From positions 1-57,711 of the IMG/VR virus record IMGVR_UViG_3300009506_000037: DNA of 57,711 bases; one strand, given 5' to 3'. This stretch comes from a virus (taxonomy: Duplodnaviria > Caudoviricetes). The notes under the pieces are model-generated. The model searched no databases, had not been told where the DNA came from, and saw nothing but the letters and a program-made list of their open reading frames with translations. Position numbers and translations under genes: made by a program. Positions 2,312 through 57,711 of this stretch are shown here, in pieces. Each line of letters begins with the position of its first letter. The stretch's first letter is position 1.

Positions 2312-2340
2312 TTGACTTCGGTTAAGTTTTCATCTACATT
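2312..2340 (+). promoter_or_regulatory. Sigma70-like promoter
   Basis: TTGACT-17nt-TACATT. Confidence 0.7.
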
Positions 2341-3141: not shown

Positions 3142-3166
3142 GGGGGCTACGGCCCCCATTTTTTTT
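3142..3166 (+). terminator. Rho-independent terminator
   Basis: GGGGGC-TACG-GCCCCC followed by a T run. Confidence 0.8.
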
Positions 3167-3180
3167 GAGAGGAGACCGAC

Positions 3181-9323: not shown

Positions 9324-9353
9324 AATGTAGAAGATGTTTCGACATTTTGCCAA
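9324..9353 (-). promoter_or_regulatory. Leftward promoter of the helicase operon
   Basis: TTGGCA-18nt-TACATT on - strand with operator-like half sites. Confidence 0.55.
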
Positions 9354-10193: not shown

Positions 10194-10995
10194 CGTGCTC
10201 GGAACAATAAGCCATGGCGACATGGTGAATGGGGTAAAGCCAACATAGCCCCGCCTATTCGTAGGTGCCTCCGAGCAAGCTGAGTCCACGGGGTATGCCC
10301 CGGCCTTCGTTCCTGACGGGGGATAGTGACGAGTGATTAGGACTGCACTGGGCGTAATAATCAAAGGCCTTGGCCCATCGTGAGGTGGGCTGCAGTAGGA
10401 AAGCGAGTCATGATAGGACAAAGAGTAGGGCTGTAGTCAGAGCCGGCAGGTGAAGGCGAAGTCCAGACTGTTGCGGTCGAGGTCGAAGGATCTCAGTGGT
10501 CGCAGTAGAGCAGCTTAGTACCCGGCAGGAGAACAGCAGAAGGTGGGTGGCATATCGTCGGGGCAACCTGATGACACCACAGGGCAGCGCTCATCTTCGT
10601 TGGTTAGCAACGTAGCTCAATGGTAGAGCACACCCCTTGAAGGGTGCTGTTGCCGGTTCAAATCCGGTCGACGCATAAAAATGCAAAGACGCTGTCCGGC
10701 GTAGTGTGAAAGTGGCTTAAACCTGCGGCCTTCGGGTAACGCAGGGTCCCCAAAGTCGCAAGCTGAGGGGGCTCCGTGACGGAGAGCACTCGGGTCCTTT
10801 GGCCGGGAACCGGGGTATCGAGAGGGCGGAGTGGCGCTACGGAATAGGTCTATCGCCTGACCTGTAAACTAAACGGCAGTCATGATCTTGTACGCCAGCG
10901 TCACTTCGGTGGGTTGGCGTGGATAACCCGGCAACCGTGGGTCGCAAGCCTGCGGGTAATCTGGGGAAAGCGGGGCAATCGGAAATTGCTTAATC
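10194..10995 (+). ncRNA. Large structured ncRNA, GOLLD-like candidate
   Basis: About 800 nt with no credible ORF, directly behind a consensus promoter; many GNRA/UUCG-capped helices; embedded tRNA-like domain. Confidence 0.6.
10606..10676 (+). tRNA. Degenerate tRNA-like element (6-nt anticodon loop CTTGAA, mispaired acceptor stem)
   Basis: D arm TAGCTCAATGGTAGAGC; stem CACCC/GGGTG; T arm GCCGG-TTCAAAT-CCGGT; no CCA. Confidence 0.65.
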
Positions 10996-11021
10996 TCAGC
11001 ATTTCCATTTATACTAATCTC

Positions 11022-20485: not shown

Positions 20486-23400
20486 TTATTTGCTCAACCT
20501 CTCGTACCGTTTCTTCTTCATCTTGTTATAGATCCGGCTGAATTCCTGCATTACCTTCTCCCGGCGGGCTTTCAATGCCTTGATACGGTCATGCTTGACC
20601 CGCTTCGGCATGTCTTCCTTATTCTGCAGGTAGTGGATCTCAGTGTTCAGCTTCTTGATCTGCTCGTTAAACCGCTTCATCTGGTGCTCGCCCATCCAGA
20701 TCAGCTCGTAGTTATTGCGCTCGAAGTCCCGCACCAGCAGCGCGTCCTCCTTGCTGGCGACCTCCTTCTTCATTTTCTGGTGGGCCTTGGTGATCTGCTC
20801 GACCTCGGTGCGCTGGTCGTAGAAGGCACGCGGCACATCCCATTCGGTACGCTCGCCGATAACCTTCCGAGCAAATGGCACCTTGTTGTAGGGAATCTCA
20901 TCCCCATAGGCCAGCTTATTGTACATCAGGGTCGGGTATTCCACGCCCATGCGGGAAATGAATGCCCCGGCGCCACCGGTCACGAAGTTGATCCAGTGAT
21001 CCATTGTCTCCGGCGAGATATCGATGAGCCCGGATTCGTACTTGCTGCCACCGGTGAGGCTGTTCAGCTGCTCGGCGAACCACTTGGTGGCCGGGTTGAC
21101 GCTGCTCCAGTACCGCTGGCTGTCCGGAATCTGGGGACCGAAGGCCGGCTGGTCCGGCATGATCGGGGACCCCATGAAGTTCTCGTTGGTAGCCAAGTCG
21201 ACAATCGGGTCGGTGATGGTCGGGGAAATCATCTTCGCCAGCATGACCTCCATGTAGTCACTGTCCGAGTTGCCGATCGGGTTGAAGGAATCGATGAGAG
21301 TTACGGCGATGTTTACAGCTACCTTACCCAGTTTTTCGGGCGGCGCATGGATGGCGTCGCTGATGCTCATGCCGACCACGTGCGGTACGTTGTACCCGTA
21401 CGGCAGCGGGAACTGGAACCGGTCCTGACATTCTCCCAACGGGTTCATGACAATCAGGTTGCGGCGCTTAATCCAGTCCGGGATCTTGTCGTAGCAGTTC
21501 TCCCCGTCCTTATCGATGCCGGCCATCAGGCGGTTCAGCTCGGTCAGGCCGAACGCGGCGACCGCGATTCCGGCCAGCACTTTCTGCACCCGGGGGCTTT
21601 TGGCCGCCTTCCACATGGTGGCGGTGCCCTGAACGCTGGCGTTATAGAACAGGTACAGGGCGTTTGCCAGCGTACCCAGCTCGCCCTTCCGGTTGAAGTT
21701 CACGGTCAGGTTCTTGGCGATCGTGGCCGCCTGCTGGTCTGACATACCCATCTCAATGGCATTCTTGAATACAGCCAACCGGGCCGCATTTTCCACAGAG
21801 GCGTTGACATCCATGACATAGTCCTTAACGCCTTTCACGACGCGCAGGACCTTGGCGTAGTTGTCACCCTCCAGCATACGGATATCATTGTTCAGCCGGG
21901 CCCGCTTGGACTCAATAGTTTCCAGCCCGAAGAACCCGATCTTGCCACCAGACTCAGAGAACCGACGGAACCACTGGACCCACTCAGACCCATGCTCGGG
22001 GTTACGCAACCCCTGATAGATGCCCTTCACAGAACTCGGAATGTCCTTGATCATGCGCTTGGCCAGCTCTGACGGGTCCACTTCGGTACGAGCCTGCAGG
22101 TTGATCAGCGCGGTCTGGATGTCTCGGGCCGCGTTGGAGATAACGAACTCGGGGTTGTAAGCGGTATTAACCGCAGCGAGGAACCGGTTGAAGGCAGCCA
22201 GTGTCTGGACAATGGCGCCAGCTTTTTCGACGCCAACATTGGTCATCGCCCGGGCCAGCAGCGGGTCCTTGATTTTGATGTACTTTTCCTGCCCGTCGAT
22301 TTTCACGGACATAACGTCATCTGCCAGCTTGAAGAACGGGTCGCGACGGTAGGCCACCTCAGCGGTTCGCTCGTCATAGACCGGGCGAGTCGGCACGTCT
22401 TCAGGGTTTTCGATAACCTGCCACAGGTCCGGGTTAGGGTTATCCCGTACAAAATTCAGGAAAGCCTGACCGACGGTATTCTTTTCTGCCCGGATGATGG
22501 TCTCCTCCATCTGCAGAATACTGTAGATGATGGGGCTGTCAGCCCGTGAGCGGCGACCCAGAGCCCGTTTGGACTCCCGGCCCTTGATACTGAAGCCGCG
22601 ACCGATGCGCTGGAACAGGCCACCGTCTTCCTCGTAGAAGCCACGCAGCGGGACATAGTGGCCGTATTTCTCGCTCCACATGTCGATATTCTTCTGGGGT
22701 TCCAGTCCCGCTTTCTTCAGCAGCTTGAGGCGGGCGTTGTTGATCCGGTAGACCAGCTTGGCCAACTCCATCTTCTCGTTGTAGGTTCCGTCATTCTTGG
22801 CGATCTGGATGATGGCCTCGGCCTCGGCGTCGGTCATCCCGGATCCCATGACGCCCTGTTCGCGCAGGGTCGGGTTAATTTCCTGAATGTGCGCGTTACG
22901 TTCTGGGGCGTGCATGGCGTACAGAAACTCATCGAGCTGGTCCAGCGTGATGTCAGACTCACTGACAGCCTGCAGGAGCGGTTTCACGTACAGGTCCTCG
23001 AACTTCTCCAGCTCGTACTCTACTTTCCCGTGATACAGCTCCTCCTTCAGGTAGGCGTCGGTTTCTGGGTCAACGGTTACGTCCGGAAGCTCCTGTATCA
23101 CCCGGAGGCGGTCGTATTTGTCCTGCAGCTTGCGTACCAGAGAGCGCCACAATGTTTCACGTGGAACAGCGAACGGACCGTCTGACAGGTTGCCGCCCTC
23201 CTTGGAGCGGGACGCCATGGCCCGGCCTTCCTGCATCGCCTTGTTCCGGCCGGCACGTACCGCCAGTTTCATCCGGCCCAGAAGCCCGGTGATTTCGGTG
23301 TCGGTTACCTTCAGGCTTGGGAAAAACTTCCGCAGGAACTGGCGTACCAATGAGATGGCACGCTGTACCCACGAAGCGCGGGGATTGATTTCGGCTTCAT

Positions 23401-26400
23401 GGGCCAGAAATTCTTCGGCGGCGACCAGCCGTCCTTCCCGGGTGCGCAAGTCCAGATCATATTCCCGGGCAATCGAGCGCAGGCGCGGCTTGTTGACTTC
23501 CGCATTGAAGATCTGGAGCAGCAACGGCTCGATCTGCTTCGGTTCCAGCAGCTGGCGCAGGCCATAATGACCAATCATTTCATGGAACAGCAGGCGCTGC
23601 GCATGTTCAGGACTGCCAATCCGGTCGGCGATCATATAGACCTTGCCGGTATTGGTATCGAACAGGCCGTCGGTTTCGTCCTCGGCATTCTGAGACCGCA
23701 AGAAATCCTGCAAATGGTTGGGCAGCTGGTCGAAGCTATCCAGCACCTCAATGTCCGGGATATTGGTCCACGTGTTCATGATGTGACGCAGCGAGTCATA
23801 GATCTTGGAGACGCTCATGCCACGCTTGGCAGCCTTGCGGGCCATTTTCGGCTGATTCAGCCGCTGGGCATTGATGGCAGCCTGCAGCTCTTCACGGGAG
23901 GTCCGCTTCCAGCTGGTCAGGTCCACGCCCTTGGTGGGTTGGCGACCCTGCGTGCGAGCCATGTCCTGCTCGGTTGACTCCAGCATCTGCAGAATAGCTT
24001 TGACCTCTGGCAGCTTCCCGGACGGGTCGAAGCCAAATTCACCCGGGTCACCAAAATCTCCGGTCAGCACCCGGTACAGAGCATCGCTGATGTTCGTGTT
24101 GTATTCCCGGGCAAAATCCACCGGATTCACGTCGATGCCGAGCTCTTCCATCAGCATCCGTTGTACGCGGAAGGTGACGTCTTCCCATTCGACGGCGCGC
24201 TGTGCCTGAGCCAGTGTCAGCGGGGCCACCTCGAAGTCGATCTGTTTGGGCGGCTTGCCACGCTTTGAGACCCACGTGCGGCCCATACGGCCTTCACGGC
24301 GGCCATCGCCGTACTTGGCCTGCATGATGTCCTCGGTGATGCCGTGCGCCAGTTCGTGGACGATACGCCACTGACGGGTGTACTCGGTATCCTTGAAGGA
24401 CCCGTGCGCCACCCGGGGGTCGTAAATCCACAGTACCCCGTCCTTGTAGCCCTGTTTCTTCAGCTTGGGAATAGCAAATTCCACACCGGCCTCAGGGTCT
24501 TCGTGGAAGGCGAAGTATTTCACCTGATACCCGAAATCGTTCAGCAGATTTTCGACGAGGGTCGGGTCATCTACCAGCGTGTCGAGGTTGTAGATCTTGA
24601 GTGAGTCGGTGGAATCTTTCCCGGGATTGATGGCGCCGAACCGGCCATACACATCGGTCAGCGCGGCGTCCGGGTTGTTCAGTCGAGATAGGGGTACTGG
24701 TGCGGCAAGCGGCCCTTGGTACGACGTGTTCCATCCGTACTTTCTTGCGACGGTTTGGCCTGCTTCGATTGCGGCTTGGCGCCGATCACGAATCCACGGG
24801 AGTAAATCGGGTCGTCCGAGCTCGCTGATTTTAGCGGCGTATTCCTGACCTTCGGTAGCTTTTGTCCAGTCATTTGAGTGGTACCCTCCTTCTGCCTTGA
24901 ATTGTGTGAATTCAGGGATATCGAAACCAGTGAAAGTATGCACCACCTTGGTCATTTTGTCGATAAAATCTTTATCTGACGTCAGGAACGGCTTACCGTT
25001 TTCGTTCCGGAAATTGATAAACCGCAGCTTACCGTCGACCAAAGTGAATTCGACTCCGGGCAGGAACTGGTTTGAGTGGTCATAGAATTCCATCGCCATC
25101 TGGTCAGTAATCGGACGGTCGGCAGTAATTTGCAGACCGACGGCAGCTTTCTTACCAGTTAGCGTGGGGTCAGCGCGGTGCCACGGCACAGCGTCTTGGG
25201 TGAAAATCATGCCCACAATGTTGGCGTACAGGTCGGCCAGCTGAGGATCGTAGGCGCCTTCAATCTTCTCGGCCACGATGTGGGTCAACATGTTCGGGCT
25301 CACGGCCAGTTCGAAGCTGCCCATGGACTGCTCAGTCCGGGCCAGTGGTGCGCCCAGCTTCTCGATAACCATGTCCTGCCCATCACGGCCGGTGATCACA
25401 TCCAGCATAGCCTGATTGAAGTCAACGACTTCGTCGGTGCTGGCGGTATGGATACCCGGGAACATTCCGGATGAGACCGACGGACGGGCCTCCCATGTCA
25501 CGCTTTCGGTGGCACGGTTCAGGTATGTCGCAAAATCGACCGGCGCCGGCGGGACAAACTTGCCCTTAACCTTCTTGGCGGCATCGCTATTCCGGGCATA
25601 GAACCACAGCCCAGCCTGTACCTCACGCGGCAGATAGCTGGTGCCATGCTTGGCATTGTAGGCCTCGGTGATATCGATGGTCAGATCGTGGGCAAACGCA
25701 TACTGCCCGGCCCCGGCCCTGACACCGTCAGCGCTTTCCGGATAACCGAACAGGCGCAGCATCCAGCGGTCCTGCGTGCTGGCGTTGTCGAAATAATTGG
25801 TGCCGAAGGTGGCGTCGTGCAGGTTCATATAGAACGACATCAGCTTGTTATCGACGCCGGGCACAGAGACGTCCATGGTGGGCGCTTCCAGAATGCCACG
25901 CACCAGCTTTTTGGTGCGGTTCGGGAACCGTCCAGCCTCAGGCTCCATGTTGCCCCGGGAGATCTCGTAGATGGATTTTACGGCCGCGGTGGTATTACCG
26001 CCGACCTGATTGGCCTGTGAGTACAAGGACATCAGGCGCACCAGATTCTCAGCGGTCTGGCGATCGCCGTTGGCGGCCTTGCGGATGGCTTCCCCGGAAC
26101 GGTCGTACCACTCCATGGTGAACGGGGTCTGGGCCAGCGGGTCTTCCAGAATATTCAGCATGCGGCGAACCAGCCCGGCGCGCTTCTGCATCGAGTTGAT
26201 GCCCGGGGGAGCCCCTGACAGGTCGCCCTTCGCGTTGAACTTGCGGGGCTTGGCAGTGCGCCGGTAAAGGGTGTCTGCCTGAGATTTGGCGTGCTTCTCC
26301 GGAACGATCGTGATGCCCTCGGGACTGAACATAATCACGTCACCGGTGTCATCGGATATGGCAGCGTCGTAACCCTGCCGTTTCAGCTTCTTCAGCAGCT

Positions 26401-29400
26401 CCGGCTTGTCACGAAGCGTCCGCCAGTCCTCATCCATAATGGTGACCGGGTTCTTGTAGTCCAGCTTGGCCTTAATGACCCGCTTGCCATGCTGTTTCGC
26501 AACCGACCGGCTCCGGGTGAAGTGGCCAGCCACCCCTTCCTGAGTCTTAAACTGGTCAAATTCGGCGTTGGTTCCGTGATAGTAGGCCTTGTTGCCGCGG
26601 CTCATGCGCACGCCCACATCCTGACTAGCTTCGCCGAACTGCTGCTTGATGGCCTCGGAATTCGGGTAGGTGATATCAATCAGGCCGCTAATGAACGGGG
26701 ACTTCCCGGGCTGTTCCGCGTTGCGCTGGTCATACGACTGCGGCTGCAGATATGTTTCAGTAAAGCCCATGGTCTTGGTGCCATATTTGGCATCGACATT
26801 CTTGATAACAACCGGGACTTCCTTGATGCCGGCCCGGGCCAGTGCAGCCATACGGTGGCGGCCTTCATGCCCGACAATCTTCGGGATACCGCCATCCTCG
26901 GTGCTGATATGCAGGAACGGAGTCTGGATCTCGTTGGCCAGCTCCTCGGTATCTAGCGGGCCAGTTTCGCCATATATGGTTCGCGGGTTACCGGTGGCGC
27001 GTACAAAGTCATCCGGGTTGATGTAGGCCATTCCTGCGATCACCCGGCCGTCCGGGTACGCATATTCAGAAAAGATGTTCCGGATCCGGTCATCGGTCAG
27101 GCCTACCTTGTCCTGCCCCATCTGGATATTTTCTTCGGTGGTGCGCTGGGCGCCACGAGACAGCTTCGGTTCCTGCAGGCCATACTCGGCAGCAACGGGC
27201 TCAGTCTTCTGGCCGGTTTGCACCCAGTTCTTGAATTCCTCGATGGGCATGGCAACGATGGAGTCCAGCCCCTTCCAGTCCTTCGAGTAATTGTTCATGT
27301 AGACCTGACGGGCCTCTTCCTCACTGTTCACGCCGAGGACGGCCTTGTGCTCATCGAACTTCCCGGTGGTCGGGTTCTTCTGGTCCACCACGTATACGGT
27401 GTCAGTGTTCTCGGCATTCGGACCAAGGAAAACGTCGACCTCTTCGCCGTCGGCTCCCTTGGTCATCTTGATATGGCCGTAGGGATTCTCCATGGTGTTG
27501 TCCCAGACATTGCCATTCTTGTCAGAACCGGTGCGCACGGTGCCACGCGGGTTCTCAATGGCGATATCCAGTCCCTGCACGTTCACGACGCCGGGTTCCT
27601 GCGGGTTGGCTTTGGTCTGTTCCTCGGCCTTGGCGATGTTCAAGCCATATTTCTGTTCAGCTTGCTGGAAGGCAGCTTCCATGGCGGTCGGCTCTTTGCC
27701 GGTGACCTGACGCTCTGCGGCACGGTTTTCCAGCGCTGACTGGACCTTGTCCGGCGCGGTCTCAGGCCGGGCGTTGTCCTTCTCCAGCTGGGAGAATCCG
27801 AGGTCCTGCTCCAGCGCCTTCATGGTTTTCTGGTCAGCCTCGTAGATATCAAAGGCTTCTTTCACGGAGCGGCTATAGTCCTGCTGCGCTTCGCCAGCCG
27901 CATCGGTGGCCTGCTGCAGCTCGGAGTCTGGCGCATTCTCCTCGGCCAGCTTGTTCAGGCGGTCAATCGCTGCCTTCAGCCGGTTCCGGGAGGTATTGAT
28001 GCGCTGCTCATGGATGCCACCAACTGAGGCGGCAACCATGTCAACCGGGGCAGTGATCGCCTCGCCGGCTGCTTCAGCCAAAATCTGGCCCCATTCCAGC
28101 GGGCGGCCAGCAGCGAGCTCTCCACCACCTTCGCCGATAGCACCCATGGTGCCTTGCACGGCAGTCTGGACCGGGACATTAATGACATGGCGCGCAACCA
28201 CATTCGCAACAGCCTTCGGTACTAGGGTGCGGCCAGCCAAACCGAAGCTCAGGCCGTCCAGCAAACCAACAACGGCAGCATGGGCTCGAGCTTCCTTGGT
28301 GATCTGCTTGTACATCTGAGGGTCAAGCAGCGCGTTTCGGACAGCTTCAATATTGTTCGTGTCGACCCCGTTACGCTGCAGAGCTCCCTGCAATTCAGCG
28401 GCAAAGTCGACATTGTAGGAGCCTTGACCTGTGGCCAGCATGCCAAGCCACGGTCCACCAAGAGCGGCAGCCACGGAGCCCTTGGCCAGCGGCTCAGCCA
28501 TCATCGGCAAGGAGGTGGTTCCCACTTCACCGACAAACGAGACAGGGTCGCGCTTCACATAACCCCATGCGGTTTTGAAGTCGTTTGCTTTGAAGGCTTC
28601 TTCCGCTACGGGAGCGGTCTGGATCTTGGCGGCCTCAGCCCCCTTCTTCGTAGAAATAGTCAGCAGGCGGTCAATCTTGTCACGCTCACGCTGCAGGGCC
28701 TCACCCATAACCCGAGGGTTGGATGACATGGTCTTGCCGGTTTCACTGATTAGCGGACGGCCAGCTTCATCAGAAGGCTCGCCCGGGCGCGCACTAATGG
28801 CGCTGCGCATCAGTGGTTGGTTACGTTGTACGTCAGGCATTTGCGGGGCCAGCGAGGCGGAGCGGGTCTTCGCTGAGGTCTCGGCCTCATCAATCGAATT
28901 GAATCCCTCCAGCTTGCGACCGGTTTCCGGATCCACCCCACCATTCTCAATAATGATGCGTTCCGCTTCGCGCTGCGTAACCTGCTTCCCATTGTACATG
29001 GACGGGATATTGGTCGGCTTACCGCCATTAATTTTTGGGTTGGTTACCGTGATGGTGCGTTCGGTCGAGAACGACCCGTCCGGGTTGCGGACAATCGGGC
29101 GTCCTTCTGAGGTGTATTTCCCGGTCGGGACATCCTCAGCGGTCATGCGGTCGGTATAGTCTTCGCGCAGGCCGTGGTAACGGCTGGCAATATCCGCAGC
29201 GCCGCTCATGGCCTTGGCGCTTTCCAGCTGTTTCATACCGCGGGTCAGGCGCTCGTCGACCACCTCACCGGTCGGGCGGGCTTCATACTGTGCCTGACGA
29301 TAATCGAAGTCAGCATAACGGGTGTCCGCGTCGAACTTCTCCCGGACCAGATCCATCGACATCGGTTTCCCGGTCTGTTTCTGGAGTTCCTGTACCCGGG

Positions 29401-29506
29401 GAGCGACTACATCCTCGAAGTATTTCTGGCGGACTTTTTCTTTTGTCGCAGAATCGAGCTTCTGAAACCGCTCATCCTGCACCACTTCTGCCCAAGTTTT
29501 GGACAT
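20486..29506 (-). CDS. Giant (3006 aa) large polyvalent protein, probably virion-injected
   Basis: Inorganic-pyrophosphatase-like domain (IENPRG..R.G....W...M..PYG.I....GADG..VDVF), ParB-like EGRHR, ART-like YHGT..F..F, zincin motifs HELAH and HEMIGH, LPD38-like C-terminus. Confidence 0.85.
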   Translation of the reverse strand: MSKTWAEVVQDERFQKLDSATKEKVRQKYFEDVVAPRVQELQKQTGKPMSMDLVREKFDADTRYADFDYRQAQYEARPTGEVVDERLTRGMKQLESAKAMSGAADIASRYHGLREDYTDRMTAEDVPTGKYTSEGRPIVRNPDGSFSTERTITVTNPKINGGKPTNIPSMYNGKQVTQREAERIIIENGGVDPETGRKLEGFNSIDEAETSAKTRSASLAPQMPDVQRNQPLMRSAISARPGEPSDEAGRPLISETGKTMSSNPRVMGEALQRERDKIDRLLTISTKKGAEAAKIQTAPVAEEAFKANDFKTAWGYVKRDPVSFVGEVGTTSLPMMAEPLAKGSVAAALGGPWLGMLATGQGSYNVDFAAELQGALQRNGVDTNNIEAVRNALLDPQMYKQITKEARAHAAVVGLLDGLSFGLAGRTLVPKAVANVVARHVINVPVQTAVQGTMGAIGEGGGELAAGRPLEWGQILAEAAGEAITAPVDMVAASVGGIHEQRINTSRNRLKAAIDRLNKLAEENAPDSELQQATDAAGEAQQDYSRSVKEAFDIYEADQKTMKALEQDLGFSQLEKDNARPETAPDKVQSALENRAAERQVTGKEPTAMEAAFQQAEQKYGLNIAKAEEQTKANPQEPGVVNVQGLDIAIENPRGTVRTGSDKNGNVWDNTMENPYGHIKMTKGADGEEVDVFLGPNAENTDTVYVVDQKNPTTGKFDEHKAVLGVNSEEEARQVYMNNYSKDWKGLDSIVAMPIEEFKNWVQTGQKTEPVAAEYGLQEPKLSRGAQRTTEENIQMGQDKVGLTDDRIRNIFSEYAYPDGRVIAGMAYINPDDFVRATGNPRTIYGETGPLDTEELANEIQTPFLHISTEDGGIPKIVGHEGRHRMAALARAGIKEVPVVIKNVDAKYGTKTMGFTETYLQPQSYDQRNAEQPGKSPFISGLIDITYPNSEAIKQQFGEASQDVGVRMSRGNKAYYHGTNAEFDQFKTQEGVAGHFTRSRSVAKQHGKRVIKAKLDYKNPVTIMDEDWRTLRDKPELLKKLKRQGYDAAISDDTGDVIMFSPEGITIVPEKHAKSQADTLYRRTAKPRKFNAKGDLSGAPPGINSMQKRAGLVRRMLNILEDPLAQTPFTMEWYDRSGEAIRKAANGDRQTAENLVRLMSLYSQANQVGGNTTAAVKSIYEISRGNMEPEAGRFPNRTKKLVRGILEAPTMDVSVPGVDNKLMSFYMNLHDATFGTNYFDNASTQDRWMLRLFGYPESADGVRAGAGQYAFAHDLTIDITEAYNAKHGTSYLPREVQAGLWFYARNSDAAKKVKGKFVPPAPVDFATYLNRATESVTWEARPSVSSGMFPGIHTASTDEVVDFNQAMLDVITGRDGQDMVIEKLGAPLARTEQSMGSFELAVSPNMLTHIVAEKIEGAYDPQLADLYANIVGMIFTQDAVPWHRADPTLTGKKAAVGLQITADRPITDQMAMEFYDHSNQFLPGVEFTLVDGKLRFINFRNENGKPFLTSDKDFIDKMTKVVHTFTGFDIPEFTQFKAEGGYHSNDWTKATEGQEYAAKISELGRPDLLPWIRDRRQAAIEAGQTVARKYGWNTSYQGPLAAPVPLSRLNNPDAALTDVYGRFGAINPGKDSTDSLKIYNLDTLVDDPTLVENLLNDFGYQVKYFAFHEDPEAGVEFAIPKLKKQGYKDGVLWIYDPRVAHGSFKDTEYTRQWRIVHELAHGITEDIMQAKYGDGRREGRMGRTWVSKRGKPPKQIDFEVAPLTLAQAQRAVEWEDVTFRVQRMLMEELGIDVNPVDFAREYNTNISDALYRVLTGDFGDPGEFGFDPSGKLPEVKAILQMLESTEQDMARTQGRQPTKGVDLTSWKRTSREELQAAINAQRLNQPKMARKAAKRGMSVSKIYDSLRHIMNTWTNIPDIEVLDSFDQLPNHLQDFLRSQNAEDETDGLFDTNTGKVYMIADRIGSPEHAQRLLFHEMIGHYGLRQLLEPKQIEPLLLQIFNAEVNKPRLRSIAREYDLDLRTREGRLVAAEEFLAHEAEINPRASWVQRAISLVRQFLRKFFPSLKVTDTEITGLLGRMKLAVRAGRNKAMQEGRAMASRSKEGGNLSDGPFAVPRETLWRSLVRKLQDKYDRLRVIQELPDVTVDPETDAYLKEELYHGKVEYELEKFEDLYVKPLLQAVSESDITLDQLDEFLYAMHAPERNAHIQEINPTLREQGVMGSGMTDAEAEAIIQIAKNDGTYNEKMELAKLVYRINNARLKLLKKAGLEPQKNIDMWSEKYGHYVPLRGFYEEDGGLFQRIGRGFSIKGRESKRALGRRSRADSPIIYSILQMEETIIRAEKNTVGQAFLNFVRDNPNPDLWQVIENPEDVPTRPVYDERTAEVAYRRDPFFKLADDVMSVKIDGQEKYIKIKDPLLARAMTNVGVEKAGAIVQTLAAFNRFLAAVNTAYNPEFVISNAARDIQTALINLQARTEVDPSELAKRMIKDIPSSVKGIYQGLRNPEHGSEWVQWFRRFSESGGKIGFFGLETIESKRARLNNDIRMLEGDNYAKVLRVVKGVKDYVMDVNASVENAARLAVFKNAIEMGMSDQQAATIAKNLTVNFNRKGELGTLANALYLFYNASVQGTATMWKAAKSPRVQKVLAGIAVAAFGLTELNRLMAGIDKDGENCYDKIPDWIKRRNLIVMNPLGECQDRFQFPLPYGYNVPHVVGMSISDAIHAPPEKLGKVAVNIAVTLIDSFNPIGNSDSDYMEVMLAKMISPTITDPIVDLATNENFMGSPIMPDQPAFGPQIPDSQRYWSSVNPATKWFAEQLNSLTGGSKYESGLIDISPETMDHWINFVTGGAGAFISRMGVEYPTLMYNKLAYGDEIPYNKVPFARKVIGERTEWDVPRAFYDQRTEVEQITKAHQKMKKEVASKEDALLVRDFERNNYELIWMGEHQMKRFNEQIKKLNTEIHYLQNKEDMPKRVKHDRIKALKARREKVMQEFSRIYNKMKKKRYERLSK

Positions 29507-55257: not shown

Positions 55258-55286
55258 TTGACTTCGACAAAACGTCGAACTATCGT
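55258..55286 (+). promoter_or_regulatory. Early-operon promoter with operator palindrome in the spacer
   Basis: TTGACT-17-TATCGT; TCGACAaaaCGTCGA; upstream TGAACAttTGTCGA. Confidence 0.7.
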
Positions 55287-55554
55287 TACACCATACCGAC
55301 GACGAAATTGACTTCGATTAGGACAGTCGGAAACAGGGAAGTCCAGCAGGAAGCTGGCGATTGAAAGGGATGAACCGCACGGCCCGGTATAAGAGTCGGC
55401 ACCCAGAGATACTGCACGAAGGGGCAGAAGCAACGGGGGCAAGCCAAAGGGCTTTCGCTGAGAGTCCTTTGCCTTGTCAACCAATGGGACGCGATTGACA
55501 GTGCACGCTGAGTCAACACTCAGTCACCACTGAGTTCACACTGAGAGCCAACTA

Positions 55555-55616
55555 GTCGAAACCCCGGGCGACCGGGGTCAGCAGGAACTGGCCTACCTGC
55601 TCTGATGAGACAGGCC
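55555..55616 (+). ncRNA. Type II hammerhead ribozyme HH1 (predicted cleavage after C55579)
   Basis: GTC-GAAA-CCCCGG(GCGA)CCGGGG-TC|AGCAGG..CCTGCT-CTGATGA-GAC; loop GGCCT pairs with tail AGGCC. Confidence 0.95.
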
Positions 55617-55635
55617 CAACCAACAGGAGATCGAC

Positions 55636-55779
55636 ATGTACGCATCTATCGCAGACATCATCGCTAATGCCAACGCCAGCGCAGAAGAGTCCATGGAATC
55701 CATGGACGACGACATGCTGGAGCGCTGGGAAAGCTGGGAAATCGACGCCGAATCCGAGCTCGATTTTAACTCACATTAA
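55636..55779 (+). CDS. 47-aa highly acidic peptide (not in ORF track)
   Basis: AGGAGA RBS; MYASIADIIANANASAEESMESMDDDMLERWESWEIDAESELDFNSH*. Confidence 0.7.
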   Translation: MYASIADIIANANASAEESMESMDDDMLERWESWEIDAESELDFNSH

Positions 55780-55816
55780 TCATCAATCGTTCACACCCGA
55801 TTGATAGGAGGTACCT

Positions 55817-56083
55817 ATGAATCCACATTACTGGAGAGTAGAGCGGGTTGAGTTCCAACGGCTCAATGACTATGGGCTGACCAAGGTCAAGCTGGTGGGG
55901 GATATTCTGAACCCGGAGGACCACAGTCCCCTGTATCTATGCCGCACCCTGCAGACGGCGCTGTTTCCCACTACGGAGGCAGCTGACCTATGGGCGCGTA
56001 ACGCAGCGGTCATCCATGGCCTCAAGGCGGTCCACGAGATACAACGTCCAGCCAAGCGAGGTCCAGCATGGTCACGTTCCTGA
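55817..56083 (+). CDS. Hypothetical protein
   Basis: AGGAGG RBS. Confidence 0.7.
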   Translation: MNPHYWRVERVEFQRLNDYGLTKVKLVGDILNPEDHSPLYLCRTLQTALFPTTEAADLWARNAAVIHGLKAVHEIQRPAKRGPAWSRS

Positions 56084-56124
56084 TTGTCTGGGCCCTGTCC
56101 CTTGGTGTCATCGCATTCCTGTAA
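56068..56124 (+). CDS. 18-aa hydrophobic micropeptide
   Basis: GAGG RBS; MVTFLIVWALSLGVIAFL*; its TAA abuts HH2. Confidence 0.5.
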   Translation: MVTFLIVWALSLGVIAFL

Positions 56125-56185
56125 GTCGAAACGCCCTTCGGGGCGTCTTCCCGGGGTAGGTTCCCGGGAACTGATGAGACAACCT
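56125..56185 (+). ncRNA. Type II hammerhead ribozyme HH2 (predicted cleavage after C56147)
   Basis: GTC-GAAA-CGCCC(TTCG)GGGCG-TC|TTCCCGGG..CCCGGGAA-CTGATGA-GAC; loop AGGTT pairs with tail AACCT. Confidence 0.95.
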
Positions 56186-56202
56186 GAGAGAGGAGACCCA
56201 TC

Positions 56203-56631
56203 ATGACCAAGCGTTACGATAAACTGTGCCGCTCAGTTACCAAGCGGCAAAAGCGAGACTGTTCGGTCGTCGCGGTAGCCATCGCCGGTCGCGTGTCCTA
56301 CCAGAAGGCGGAGGCGGCGCTGACTCAGGCCGGTAAACGCATCAATGGCGGTGCCTATGACCATGAAATCCGCAACGCCCTGATCTTTCTAGGCTGTGAG
56401 GTTACCGTGGTCCGTGACACGCACGGCTCGCCGTTCCTGAGCCAGCCCAACGATTCACGCTACACCATGTCCACCATTGGCAAGCTCTGCAAGCGCGGCT
56501 ATTACGTCGCCTTTGTTCGCGGTCACGTGGCTGCCGTGGTGAATGGCGAAGTCGAAGACTGGACCGATGGTCGACGCCATCAAGTCTACATGGCCTACAA
56601 GGTCACCGTTCCAAAGGGCTCACGCTCATAG
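56203..56631 (+). CDS. Papain/C39-like peptidase-fold protein
   Basis: DCSVVAVAIA...Y...GHVAAVVNG.VEDW (Cys-His-Asp). Confidence 0.6.
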   Translation: MTKRYDKLCRSVTKRQKRDCSVVAVAIAGRVSYQKAEAALTQAGKRINGGAYDHEIRNALIFLGCEVTVVRDTHGSPFLSQPNDSRYTMSTIGKLCKRGYYVAFVRGHVAAVVNGEVEDWTDGRRHQVYMAYKVTVPKGSRS

Positions 56632-56641
56632 GAGGCAAGCC

Positions 56642-56839
56642 ATGCACCATCCATCCAATAAACCGAACTGCGACTACCCCACCCCGGACTGGCAGCTCTT
56701 CAGCATGATGAGTGAGCTGTCACCCATCCGGCGCCAGCAGGCCAAGGCCCGTCACATGCGTCGCTGGGGTCACGTGTTCGCCACCAAGGTTCACCTGCAC
56801 CATGCAGACTACCTGCGTGAATACGAGCGCTCCCTATAG
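56642..56839 (+). CDS. Hypothetical protein
   Basis: AGGAGG RBS; its TAG overlaps HH3. Confidence 0.65.
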   Translation: MHHPSNKPNCDYPTPDWQLFSMMSELSPIRRQQAKARHMRRWGHVFATKVHLHHADYLREYERSL

Positions 56840-56900
56840 TCGAAACCGGCTCCGGCCGGTCTGCGGGATCCCGGTCCTACCCGCACTGATGAGACAGGAC
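56839..56900 (+). ncRNA. Type II hammerhead ribozyme HH3 (predicted cleavage after C56861)
   Basis: GTC-GAAA-CCGGC(TCCG)GCCGG-TC|TGCGGG..CCCGCA-CTGATGA-GAC; loop GTCCT pairs with tail AGGAC. Confidence 0.95.
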
Positions 56901-56921
56901 CCACAACATAGGAGCAACATC

Positions 56922-57230
56922 ATGGCCAACATATCTACCTCCAACCTCATCGACCAGCTGGGCGAACTGAAAGCCCAGATCGCGGACCTCGAAAACCAGA
57001 AGAAGGTCATCGAGGGACGCCTGAAGAAGAGAATCCTGCCCCATGGCGAGGGCGAGGGCGAGCTCTTCAGGGTGGTCCGTGTCATCCAGAACAACACCCG
57101 CGTCAACTGGAAGGGTATTGCCATCAAGCTGAAGGCATCCAAGCAGCTGATAGAGAGCTTCACGGAGCACCACGATGACAAGGACTTCTTCAAGGTGTCC
57201 GCCCGTCGAGGCCTCGAAAAGGTTGCGTAA
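56922..57230 (+). CDS. Conserved phage hypothetical protein
   Basis: AGGAG RBS; IDQLGELKAQIADL...EGELF...VNWK. Confidence 0.75.
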   Translation: MANISTSNLIDQLGELKAQIADLENQKKVIEGRLKKRILPHGEGEGELFRVVRVIQNNTRVNWKGIAIKLKASKQLIESFTEHHDDKDFFKVSARRGLEKVA

Positions 57231-57233
57231 TCC

Positions 57234-57296
57234 GTCGAAACCGGGCTCCGGCCCGGTCCATGGGACCTTACCTACCCATGCTGATGAGACAGGTAA
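57234..57296 (+). ncRNA. Type II hammerhead ribozyme HH4 (predicted cleavage after C57258)
   Basis: GTC-GAAA-CCGGGC(TCCG)GCCCGG-TC|CATGGG..CCCATG-CTGATGA-GAC; loop TTACCT pairs with tail AGGTAA. Confidence 0.95.
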
Positions 57297-57337
57297 AATC
57301 CTTTCAATTCAGACATTTAACTATAGCACAGGAGGCC

Positions 57338-57711
57338 ATGATGGTCACTAAAAATCGCACCATGATCAGCGATTCTGGCCATGGCTGGTTGTCGGTCCCG
57401 ATCGACGATCTGGTCAAGCTGGACATCGTCGACAAGATCACCCGGTACAGCTATATCAGCCCCACCCGGGTCTATCTCGAGGAAGACTGCGACGCCGGTA
57501 CCTACCTGCGGGCAGCTGAGGAGATCGGCTGGAAGGTCAATGTGAAGCACTCCTTCACTGGTGACCACTGGCACGGCAGGAACTGGCCCAGTTACGACTC
57601 GTACTGGGTGACCAACAAGTTCAAGGCCGGGGCAACAGTCTCGGTGCTGGACATTGCTGGTCAGCGGATCAATGCAACCGTCGTTCAAAATGGCCGCGGC
57701 TACAAGATTGA
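57338..57711 (+). CDS. Conserved phage hypothetical protein (SGHGWL...YLEEDCD motif); continues across the origin to TGA at 212-214
   Basis: AGGAGG RBS before ATG 57338; manual translation MMVTKNRTMISDSGHGWLSV...YLEEDCDAG...QYIYRPN*. Confidence 0.8.
   Translation, partial: MMVTKNRTMISDSGHGWLSVPIDDLVKLDIVDKITRYSYISPTRVYLEEDCDAGTYLRAAEEIGWKVNVKHSFTGDHWHGRNWPSYDSYWVTNKFKAGATVSVLDIAGQRINATVVQNGRGYKI
57568..57711. repeat. Terminal direct repeat (copy 2)
   Basis: Identical to 1-144. Confidence 0.95.

Follow-up and report, generated by a model that had tools for sequence, protein, structure and literature searches.

Six predicted type II hammerhead ribozymes with covarying loop–tail pseudoknots in the small-gene spacers of a marine-sediment phage

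The contact between the loop of stem I and the 3′ tail is the defining pseudoknot of type II hammerhead ribozymes, and the majority of type II motifs were described as able to form at least 4 base pairs immediately 3′ of stem II (Perreault 2011, PMC3088659). When this pseudoknot was shortened or mutated, the observed rate constant (k_obs) at 0.5 mM Mg2+ fell by 20-fold to more than 100-fold, and compensatory mutation restored it (PMC3088659). The same report describes clustered hammerheads flanking small prophage genes, for which the processing of a long transcript was proposed, and tandem arrangements that cleave in vitro and, in one case, in E. coli. Three type II hammerheads near phage-like genes were found by cyPhyRNA-seq to cleave in vivo in Desulfovibrio vulgaris (PMC8782182). 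Here we analyze the IMG/VR virus record IMGVR_UViG_3300009506_000037, whose entire 57,711 bases we call the window, and in which an original prediction, made by a model that saw only the sequence and its open reading frames (ORFs), had pointed to hammerheads that each carry their own co-varying pseudoknot between the stem I loop and the 3′ tail.

Type II hammerhead ribozymes (RF02276) number exactly six in the window; they all lie on the + strand, in the spacers within a single block of small genes. We read them, with a probability of roughly 85%, as canonical type II self-cleaving ribozymes that carry the known Watson-Crick pseudoknot of the family and are located in the small-gene spacers of a complete phage genome. 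The original prediction assigned them to positions 56,125 to 57,296; there are indeed ribozymes in that span, but it holds only three of the six. They are hammerhead 1 (55554-55619, predicted cut 55579/55580), hammerhead 2 (56124-56188, 56147/56148), hammerhead 3 (56838-56903, 56861/56862), hammerhead 4 (57233-57298, 57258/57259), hammerhead 5 (214-280, 237/238) and hammerhead 6 (861-925, 886/887). The motif GTCGAAAC occurs seven times in the window versus 1.76 expected, and six of these occurrences are on the + strand at 215, 862, 55555, 56125, 56839 and 57234; the motif CTGATGAG occurs eight times versus 2.4 expected, and six of these belong to the hammerhead copies. The additional matches, at 9336 (−), 2033 (+) and 34825 (−), have no hammerhead around them, and the two surplus CTGATGAG matches among them (2033 and 34825) fall in coding sequence. 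No seventh hammerhead and no other self-cleaving ribozyme family was matched at E values up to 1 in a search of the whole window.

All six copies retain an intact core, with CUGAUGA, GAAA and the cleavage triplet GUC. The minimum free energy fold reproduces the exact type II shape in five of them, with an open 3-bp stem II (GUC/GAC) and capped stems I and III; for hammerhead 4 this fold keeps stems I and III and draws a different outer helix, with the GUC/GAC pairing still available. The Rfam alignments agree with the three-stem type II permutation of the copies. Hammerhead 6 is the best match to the RF02276 model (60.1 bits), and hammerheads 2 (51.8 bits) and 1 (39.2 bits) also exceed the gathering score of 37 bits. 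Two architectures can be distinguished. Hammerheads 1, 3 and 4 have a 6-bp stem I with a loop of 10-12 nt that ends in CCUA (architecture A), and hammerheads 2, 5 and 6 have a longer stem I with a loop of 4-7 nt (architecture B). The stems, which were taken to be distinct, are not all so: the stem III helix is identical in hammerheads 5 and 2 (CGCCC/GGGCG), and that of hammerhead 6 is nearly the same.

In all six copies, as predicted, the stem I loop pairs over 4-6 bp with a tail that begins 0-1 nt after the GAC at the end of stem II. The helix consists of 5 bp in hammerhead 1 (loop 55590-55594 GGCCU, tail 55612-55616 AGGCC; −9.0 kcal/mol), 5 bp, or 6 with a U·G pair, in hammerhead 2 (56158-56162 AGGUU, 56181-56185 AACCU; −5.2 kcal/mol), 6 bp in hammerhead 3 (56873-56878 GGUCCU, 56896-56901 AGGACC; −10.5 kcal/mol), 6 bp in hammerhead 4 (57268-57273 UUACCU, 57291-57296 AGGUAA; −6.4 kcal/mol), 5 bp in hammerhead 5 (248-252 UGGCU, 273-277 AGCCA; −6.6 kcal/mol) and 4 bp including one U·G in hammerhead 6 (895-898 UGGU, 919-922 GCCA; −4.3 kcal/mol). 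The loop-tail pair was said to differ each time, and there are five different pseudoknot sequences; hammerheads 5 and 6, however, share the tail AGCCA, and the loop of hammerhead 5 fits the tail of hammerhead 6 with 5 bp. The own helices total 31 bp, a value reached by 2 of the 720 permutations of the six tails and by none of 20,000 draws of foreign phage tails, for which the maximum was 29. The own duplex energies total −42.0 kcal/mol, whereas permuted tails average −21.8, and of the 720 arrangements only one, the identity, attains the observed total.

We examined the same contact in other phages by scanning IMG/VR for the exact pattern of the two core strands, which returned at least 120 stretches (loci L007-L126). 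Among the matches listed, a regular expression and stem checks yielded 127 hammerheads from these loci, which together with the six of the window make a sample of 133. This filter demands GUC/GAC-like pairing in stem II, and other forms escape it; it rejected one of the seven type II hammerhead pattern matches that lie within 3 kb of locus L047 (8402-11317). A loop and its own tail formed a helix of at least 5 bp in 47% of the 133 sampled hammerheads versus 7.7% of the non-self combinations of loop and tail, and a helix of at least 4 bp in 60% versus 21%. Both stem I architectures of the window recur in the sample, and architecture A accounts for 34 of the 133.

For the analysis of covariation, we used a gapless alignment of 31 distinct sequences, two of them from the window, with a 6-bp stem I, a 10-nt loop and equal length from stem I to tail. 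Every row had to have a 6-bp stem I and a 22-nt hairpin, with no requirement on the pseudoknot, so stem I pairing is given by construction and only the pseudoknot counts. A MAFFT alignment of the six full copies had put the stems out of register and was not used for pair counts. In the 31 sequences, 86% of the pseudoknot cells were paired, versus 67.7% in shuffled alignments (0 of 500 as high) and 21-47% when the partner was slid out of register. Cells changed on both sides numbered 30, versus 5.8 expected (0 of 500 as high). This covariation is among paralogues and unrelated phage copies, and compensatory change was found in them at four of the six pseudoknot pairs. Mutual information was 0.64-0.86 at the three central pairs (pairs 3-5), with 0 of 2,000 shuffles as high.

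These results bear on the explanation that the loop-tail complementarity arose by chance from G+C-rich, RBS-like sequence around the starts of genes, where RBS denotes a ribosome-binding site. It is true that three of the six tails begin with AGG and resemble RBS sequences, and that 4 bp is within reach of the fifth of non-self pairs (21%) noted above. The observed total of 31 bp, however, is matched by so few permuted or foreign tails, the pairing falls so far in slid registers, and double changes recur at so many of the pseudoknot pairs that we give a chance origin virtually no probability, and it was rejected on the permutation, foreign-tail and slid-register controls. Core and stems are thus shown for the window, as is a pseudoknot complementarity that exceeds chance and covaries across the phage relatives, and the permutation tests and the covariation in 31 distinct phage hammerheads support the proposal of selection on the contact between loop I and the tail. 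Approximately 28 of the 133 sampled hammerheads, all from the loci and none from the window, combine a stem I of 7 bp with a loop of 3 nt and tails that begin with CAAC or CACA, and they lack loop-tail pairing, which indicates that the pseudoknot is common in the family and not universal. Presumably this subclass with a 3-nt loop uses another tertiary contact.

Close relatives of the region were sought as well. A blastn search with 55400-57711 against 50,697 phage records gave no match, and in a blastn comparison of the window with the at least 120 loci the hits were confined to short hammerhead stretches and to structural genes, the latter at 64-73%. No relative of the 142-aa ORF downstream of hammerhead 2 was found in viral contigs, and none of the 229 pattern matches to it in metagenome contigs was confirmed. 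In the comparison of the flanking proteins with the fetched loci, only this 142-aa ORF had a homologue (L049, 31% identity), which also lies near hammerheads; no conserved pairing of gene and ribozyme emerged from that comparison. In addition, sediment contigs from runs X1 and X2 (for example, of 24 kb and 51 kb) match only the part of hammerhead 1 from stem I to the tail (55573-55618), with 3-6 differences and unrelated flanks. These partial matches show that similar hammerheads are present in other phages of the same community.

The original prediction further held that distinct pseudoknots and stems prevent cross-pairing between neighboring ribozymes and reduce recombination, that is, that selection keeps the sequences of neighbors different. 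Two observations in the window are in line with this proposal. Only 1 of the 30 non-self combinations reaches at least 5 bp versus 5.7 expected (P about 0.05, uncorrected, for one of three measures), and the longest identical run between any two window copies is 11-14 nt, little beyond the conserved core. The other two measures, however, were unremarkable in the window (P = 0.40 and 0.49), hammerheads 5 and 6 share a tail, and hammerheads 2, 5 and 6 share stem III. We compared cross-fits within and between genomes for those of the sampled hammerheads that have an own helix of at least 4 bp, using label permutation; the power of this and the following tests is modest. Cross-fits of at least 5 bp made up 16.7% of 120 pairs within genomes versus 18.2% of 6,200 pairs between genomes (P = 0.42), and the mean cross-fit was slightly higher within genomes. 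When seven arrays were tested singly, the window was nominally low, L047, L119, L123 and L049 were unremarkable, and L013 (four copies) and L045 cross-fitted more than expected; in L045 (6831-7458), two adjacent copies have identical stem I and tail. Identical runs of at least 20 nt were found in 9% of 78 pairs within genomes versus 0.9% between genomes, which suggests local duplication followed by drift and not enforced dissimilarity. Moreover, approximately 20 nt separate each loop from its own tail, compared with 400-700 nt to the next tail, which should favor local folding in any case. Neither part of the proposal was borne out, the one on cross-pairing because of the equal cross-fits and the one on recombination because longer shared runs are commoner within genomes, and we consider selection for distinctness improbable. 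The simplest explanation for the differing pseudoknot sequences is compensatory drift under a constraint on pairing alone.

The position of the ribozymes relative to the genes is regular. The six copies separate blocks of one to three small ORFs over a span of approximately 3.3 kb, and in five of the six the ribozyme follows an upstream stop codon at a distance of −1 to 3 nt. The remaining copy, hammerhead 1, is located in a leader, after a promoter-like site and before a 47-aa ORF (55636-55779, +). Hammerhead 2 begins on the last base of the stop codon that abuts it, that of a hydrophobic mini-ORF of 18 codons (MVTFLIVWALSLGVIAFL; 56068-56124, +) that overlaps the end of an 88-aa ORF, and it precedes the 142-aa ORF (56203-56631, +). 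In hammerhead 3, the first G of stem II is overlapped by the TAG of a 65-aa ORF, and a 102-aa ORF follows (56922-57230, +). Hammerhead 5 abuts the TGA of a 147-aa ORF that crosses the window ends (from 57338 to the window end and continuing to 214, +) and precedes a 60-aa ORF (291-473, +), and hammerhead 6 abuts the TAA of a 101-aa ORF and precedes an 80-aa ORF (938-1180, +). An AGGAG-type RBS starts 8-15 nt after stem II in five of the six copies, in agreement with the prediction that the tail lies just upstream of most RBSs; hammerhead 4, with 40 nt, is the sole exception to this close spacing.

The sampled phage hammerheads show a similar placement in raw counts made with stop-to-stop frames. 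In 122 of the 133, an upstream open frame of at least 40 codons ends within 60 nt. In 38 cases the gap between the upstream frame and stem II is −1, the G of a TAG being also the first base of stem II; the two abut directly in 22 cases and are 1-3 nt apart in 34, so that the frame ends −1 to +3 nt from stem II in 94 of the 133. An RBS-like motif with a start codon within 150 nt follows in 114 of the 133, the start codon at a median of 25 nt after stem II. We did not find this geometry of stop codon, ribozyme and RBS in the passages searched of the hammerhead papers; in the main text of Perreault 2011, the terms “stop codon”, “Shine” and “ribosome” have 0 occurrences.

One explanation of this placement is that the pseudoknot also serves the downstream mRNA, with a 5′-terminal knot ahead of the RBS that would protect the 5′-OH end and fix the context of initiation. 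Because the predicted cut lies 5′ of stem I, loop and tail would both remain on the 3′ product, and the pseudoknot was reported to form in the absence of the other strand (Perreault 2011, PMC3088659); the short distance to the RBS in five of the six copies and the downstream motifs in most of the sample point in the same direction. On the other hand, the tight spacing may merely reflect the compactness of phage genomes, hammerhead 4 departs from it, and approximately 40% of the sampled hammerheads have less than 4 bp of loop-tail pairing, yet a similar placement. We therefore regard a role in the mRNA as possible and rather doubtful. Somewhat less likely still is that stop codon, hammerhead, pseudoknot tail, RBS and start codon form a cassette of fixed geometry that would couple RNA cutting to translation. 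If such a cassette exists, a ribosome that reaches the upstream stop codon would sit on stem II and the GAAA strand and thereby gate folding, and the pseudoknot on the 3′ product would cap the new 5′-OH end and set the context of the RBS.

The reading of the six copies as self-cleaving type II hammerheads suggests the following course of events. The six copies are probably carried on one transcript, to judge by their common strand and by the surrounding signals, all of which are consensus matches and putative. A sigma-70-like promoter match (TTGACT-17-TATCGT, 55258-55286, +) lies approximately 270 nt 5′ of hammerhead 1, further promoter-like matches lie at 494-522 and 2312-2340 (both +), and an intrinsic-terminator-like hairpin with a T run at 3142-3167 (+), after a DUF932 gene, is the first strong terminator-like site 3′ of the hammerhead block. 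Each ribozyme would fold during transcription, with the pseudoknot setting stems I and II side by side. Cleavage after GUC, leaving 2′,3′-cyclic phosphate and 5′-OH ends, is predicted from the behavior of the family, and it would divide the long transcript into mRNAs that each carry one to three genes, with calculated pieces of about 570, 710, 400, 550 and 650 nt plus the downstream piece. Because stem II has only 3 bp, the two products would part at once. The stem III hairpin and a 2′,3′-cyclic phosphate would form the 3′ end of each upstream piece, and each downstream piece would start with a 5′-OH, the stem I hairpin and a pseudoknot that could still form, a few bases before the RBS. RNases that depend on the 5′ end and the processing of T7 transcripts by RNase III are examples of how RNA ends affect stability and translation, and by analogy the hammerhead-made ends may alter either property of the mRNAs.

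A different role has to be weighed against mRNA processing, namely that the ribozymes are selfish or mobile cassettes, each a ribozyme with a small ORF, or that they make circular or spliced RNAs. The flanked genes are small, unrelated to one another and of unknown function, a near-copy of the stem I and tail of hammerhead 1 occurs in unrelated flanks on other contigs of the same samples, and copies within a genome are somewhat more alike than copies between genomes. Nevertheless, spliced or circular products were sought in such clusters and none were found (Perreault 2011, PMC3088659), and the units in the window are not surrounded by repeats or integrase-type features. We consider this explanation very unlikely.

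Several points weigh against the view of six canonical ribozymes that process one transcript. Hammerheads 4, 3 and 5, at 36.8, 33.9 and 33.1 bits, are under the RF02276 gathering score, albeit with E values of 1.7e-7 to 1.5e-6 in a search of this genome. Their scores are low because their stem I loops are longer or bulged; core and stems are intact, and these copies are therefore still counted as members of the family. The pseudoknot of hammerhead 6 has only 4 bp with a wobble pair, and by energy its loop fits the tail of hammerhead 3 slightly better (−4.6 kcal/mol) than its own (−4.3 kcal/mol). The placement on one transcript draws on strand and on consensus promoter and terminator matches only, and the promoter-like site at 494 lies inside the block. 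Finally, reviews describe the biological role of phage hammerheads as unresolved; according to one from 2019, they have been suggested to process polycistronic transcripts, but their purpose is still to be defined (PMC6765202).

The window is a complete phage genome of 57.6 kb from marine sediment. The 57,711-base record is classed as 100% complete, with direct terminal repeats, and it encodes terminase, major head protein, portal/adaptor, internal virion protein, RecT and helicase. Bases 1-144 are identical to 57568-57711, and because this 144-base “direct terminal repeat” falls within the 147-aa ORF, it resembles an overlap left by a circular or permuted assembly and not true physical ends, so the ribozyme region is read as contiguous across the window ends. 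Near-identical DNA is present in marine-sediment metagenome runs (sister samples X1-X4), whose contigs of the same phage show three single-base differences, none of them inside the hammerheads. From 55636 across the window ends to beyond 3135, all ORFs are on the + strand, and most have 18-147 aa and no Pfam family; one of them belongs to a PHROG whose function is unknown, and at 2371 comes the DUF932 gene.

Some further features were noted in the window. Just 5′ of hammerhead 1, at 55499-55542, there are three copies of a unit of approximately 22 nt (…AGTCA(A/C)CACT…) with 11-nt spacing, which also make an imperfect inverted repeat. Two copies of the decamer TTGACTTCGA are separated by 50 nt (55258 and 55308, +), and one of them forms the −35 element of the promoter-like match. 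These leader repeats and decamers may be regulator-binding sites. A match to the GOLLD RNA (RF02032) at 10538-11002 (+) covers the full length of the model with E = 6.9e-29 and 112.7 bits, which is under the gathering score of 150, and within it lies a tRNA-like element (10606-10676, RF00005, 43.3 bits) that ARAGORN labels “tRNA-???” with a two-base “anticodon (tg)”, that is, with a shortened anticodon loop. On the − strand, a 3,006-aa polyvalent protein (20489-29506) contains InPase (PF18823), LPD38 (PF18857) and a weak ART-PolyVal domain, and matches to giant PHROG families without known function cover its C-terminal 900 aa.

The pseudoknot and its contribution to rapid cleavage at low Mg2+ have been published since 2011, as has the clustering of hammerheads around small phage genes, and this locus adds little that is new to them. 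The disruption and compensation of loop-tail pairs that the original prediction proposed as an experiment was performed at the level of the family in 2011. The small additions are the negative result on “orthogonal” pseudoknots and the geometry of stop codon, ribozyme and RBS over the 133 sampled phage copies. The window nonetheless offers a clean natural test set, with six active-looking ribozymes, five pseudoknot sequences and two stem I architectures, which is suited to experiments on the purpose of phage hammerheads.

Compared with the type described by RF02276 and Perreault 2011, the window copies have the same core, the same permutation with an open 3-bp stem II and the pseudoknot in the same place. 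Loop and tail of hammerhead 6 equal the Rfam consensus UGGu/AGCCa, and nothing in the six copies is different in kind; the three with a 6-bp stem I and CCUA loop score slightly lower. The D. vulgaris hammerheads (PMC8782182) are of the same type and lie near hypothetical or phage-like genes, two of them close together, and they provide evidence of cleavage in vivo, whereas cleavage of the window copies is predicted. The published prophage clusters (the Agrobacterium tumefaciens triple around ardA, Clostridium scindens and Azorhizobium caulinodans) have the same layout of several hammerheads on one strand. Relative to such triple arrangements, the six copies in approximately 3.3 kb are more numerous and not unique, as L047 has seven pattern matches in 3 kb, and the genes flanked in the window match neither ardA nor any named family.

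Two more distant systems show where the likeness ends. In phage T7, the early polycistronic mRNA is cut by RNase III at intergenic hairpins, and the resemblance lies in a long early transcript that is cut between genes with hairpins left at the new ends. The difference is that T7 depends on a host protein enzyme and double-stranded sites, whereas the RNA of the window would cut itself without a host nuclease. RiboJ-type insulators are engineered elements derived from a type III satellite-RNA hammerhead. There, too, a self-cleaving hammerhead is inserted between the upstream sequence and an RBS, so that the 5′ end is defined and carries a hairpin, but the element is engineered and of type III, while the window carries natural type II hammerheads with pseudoknots.

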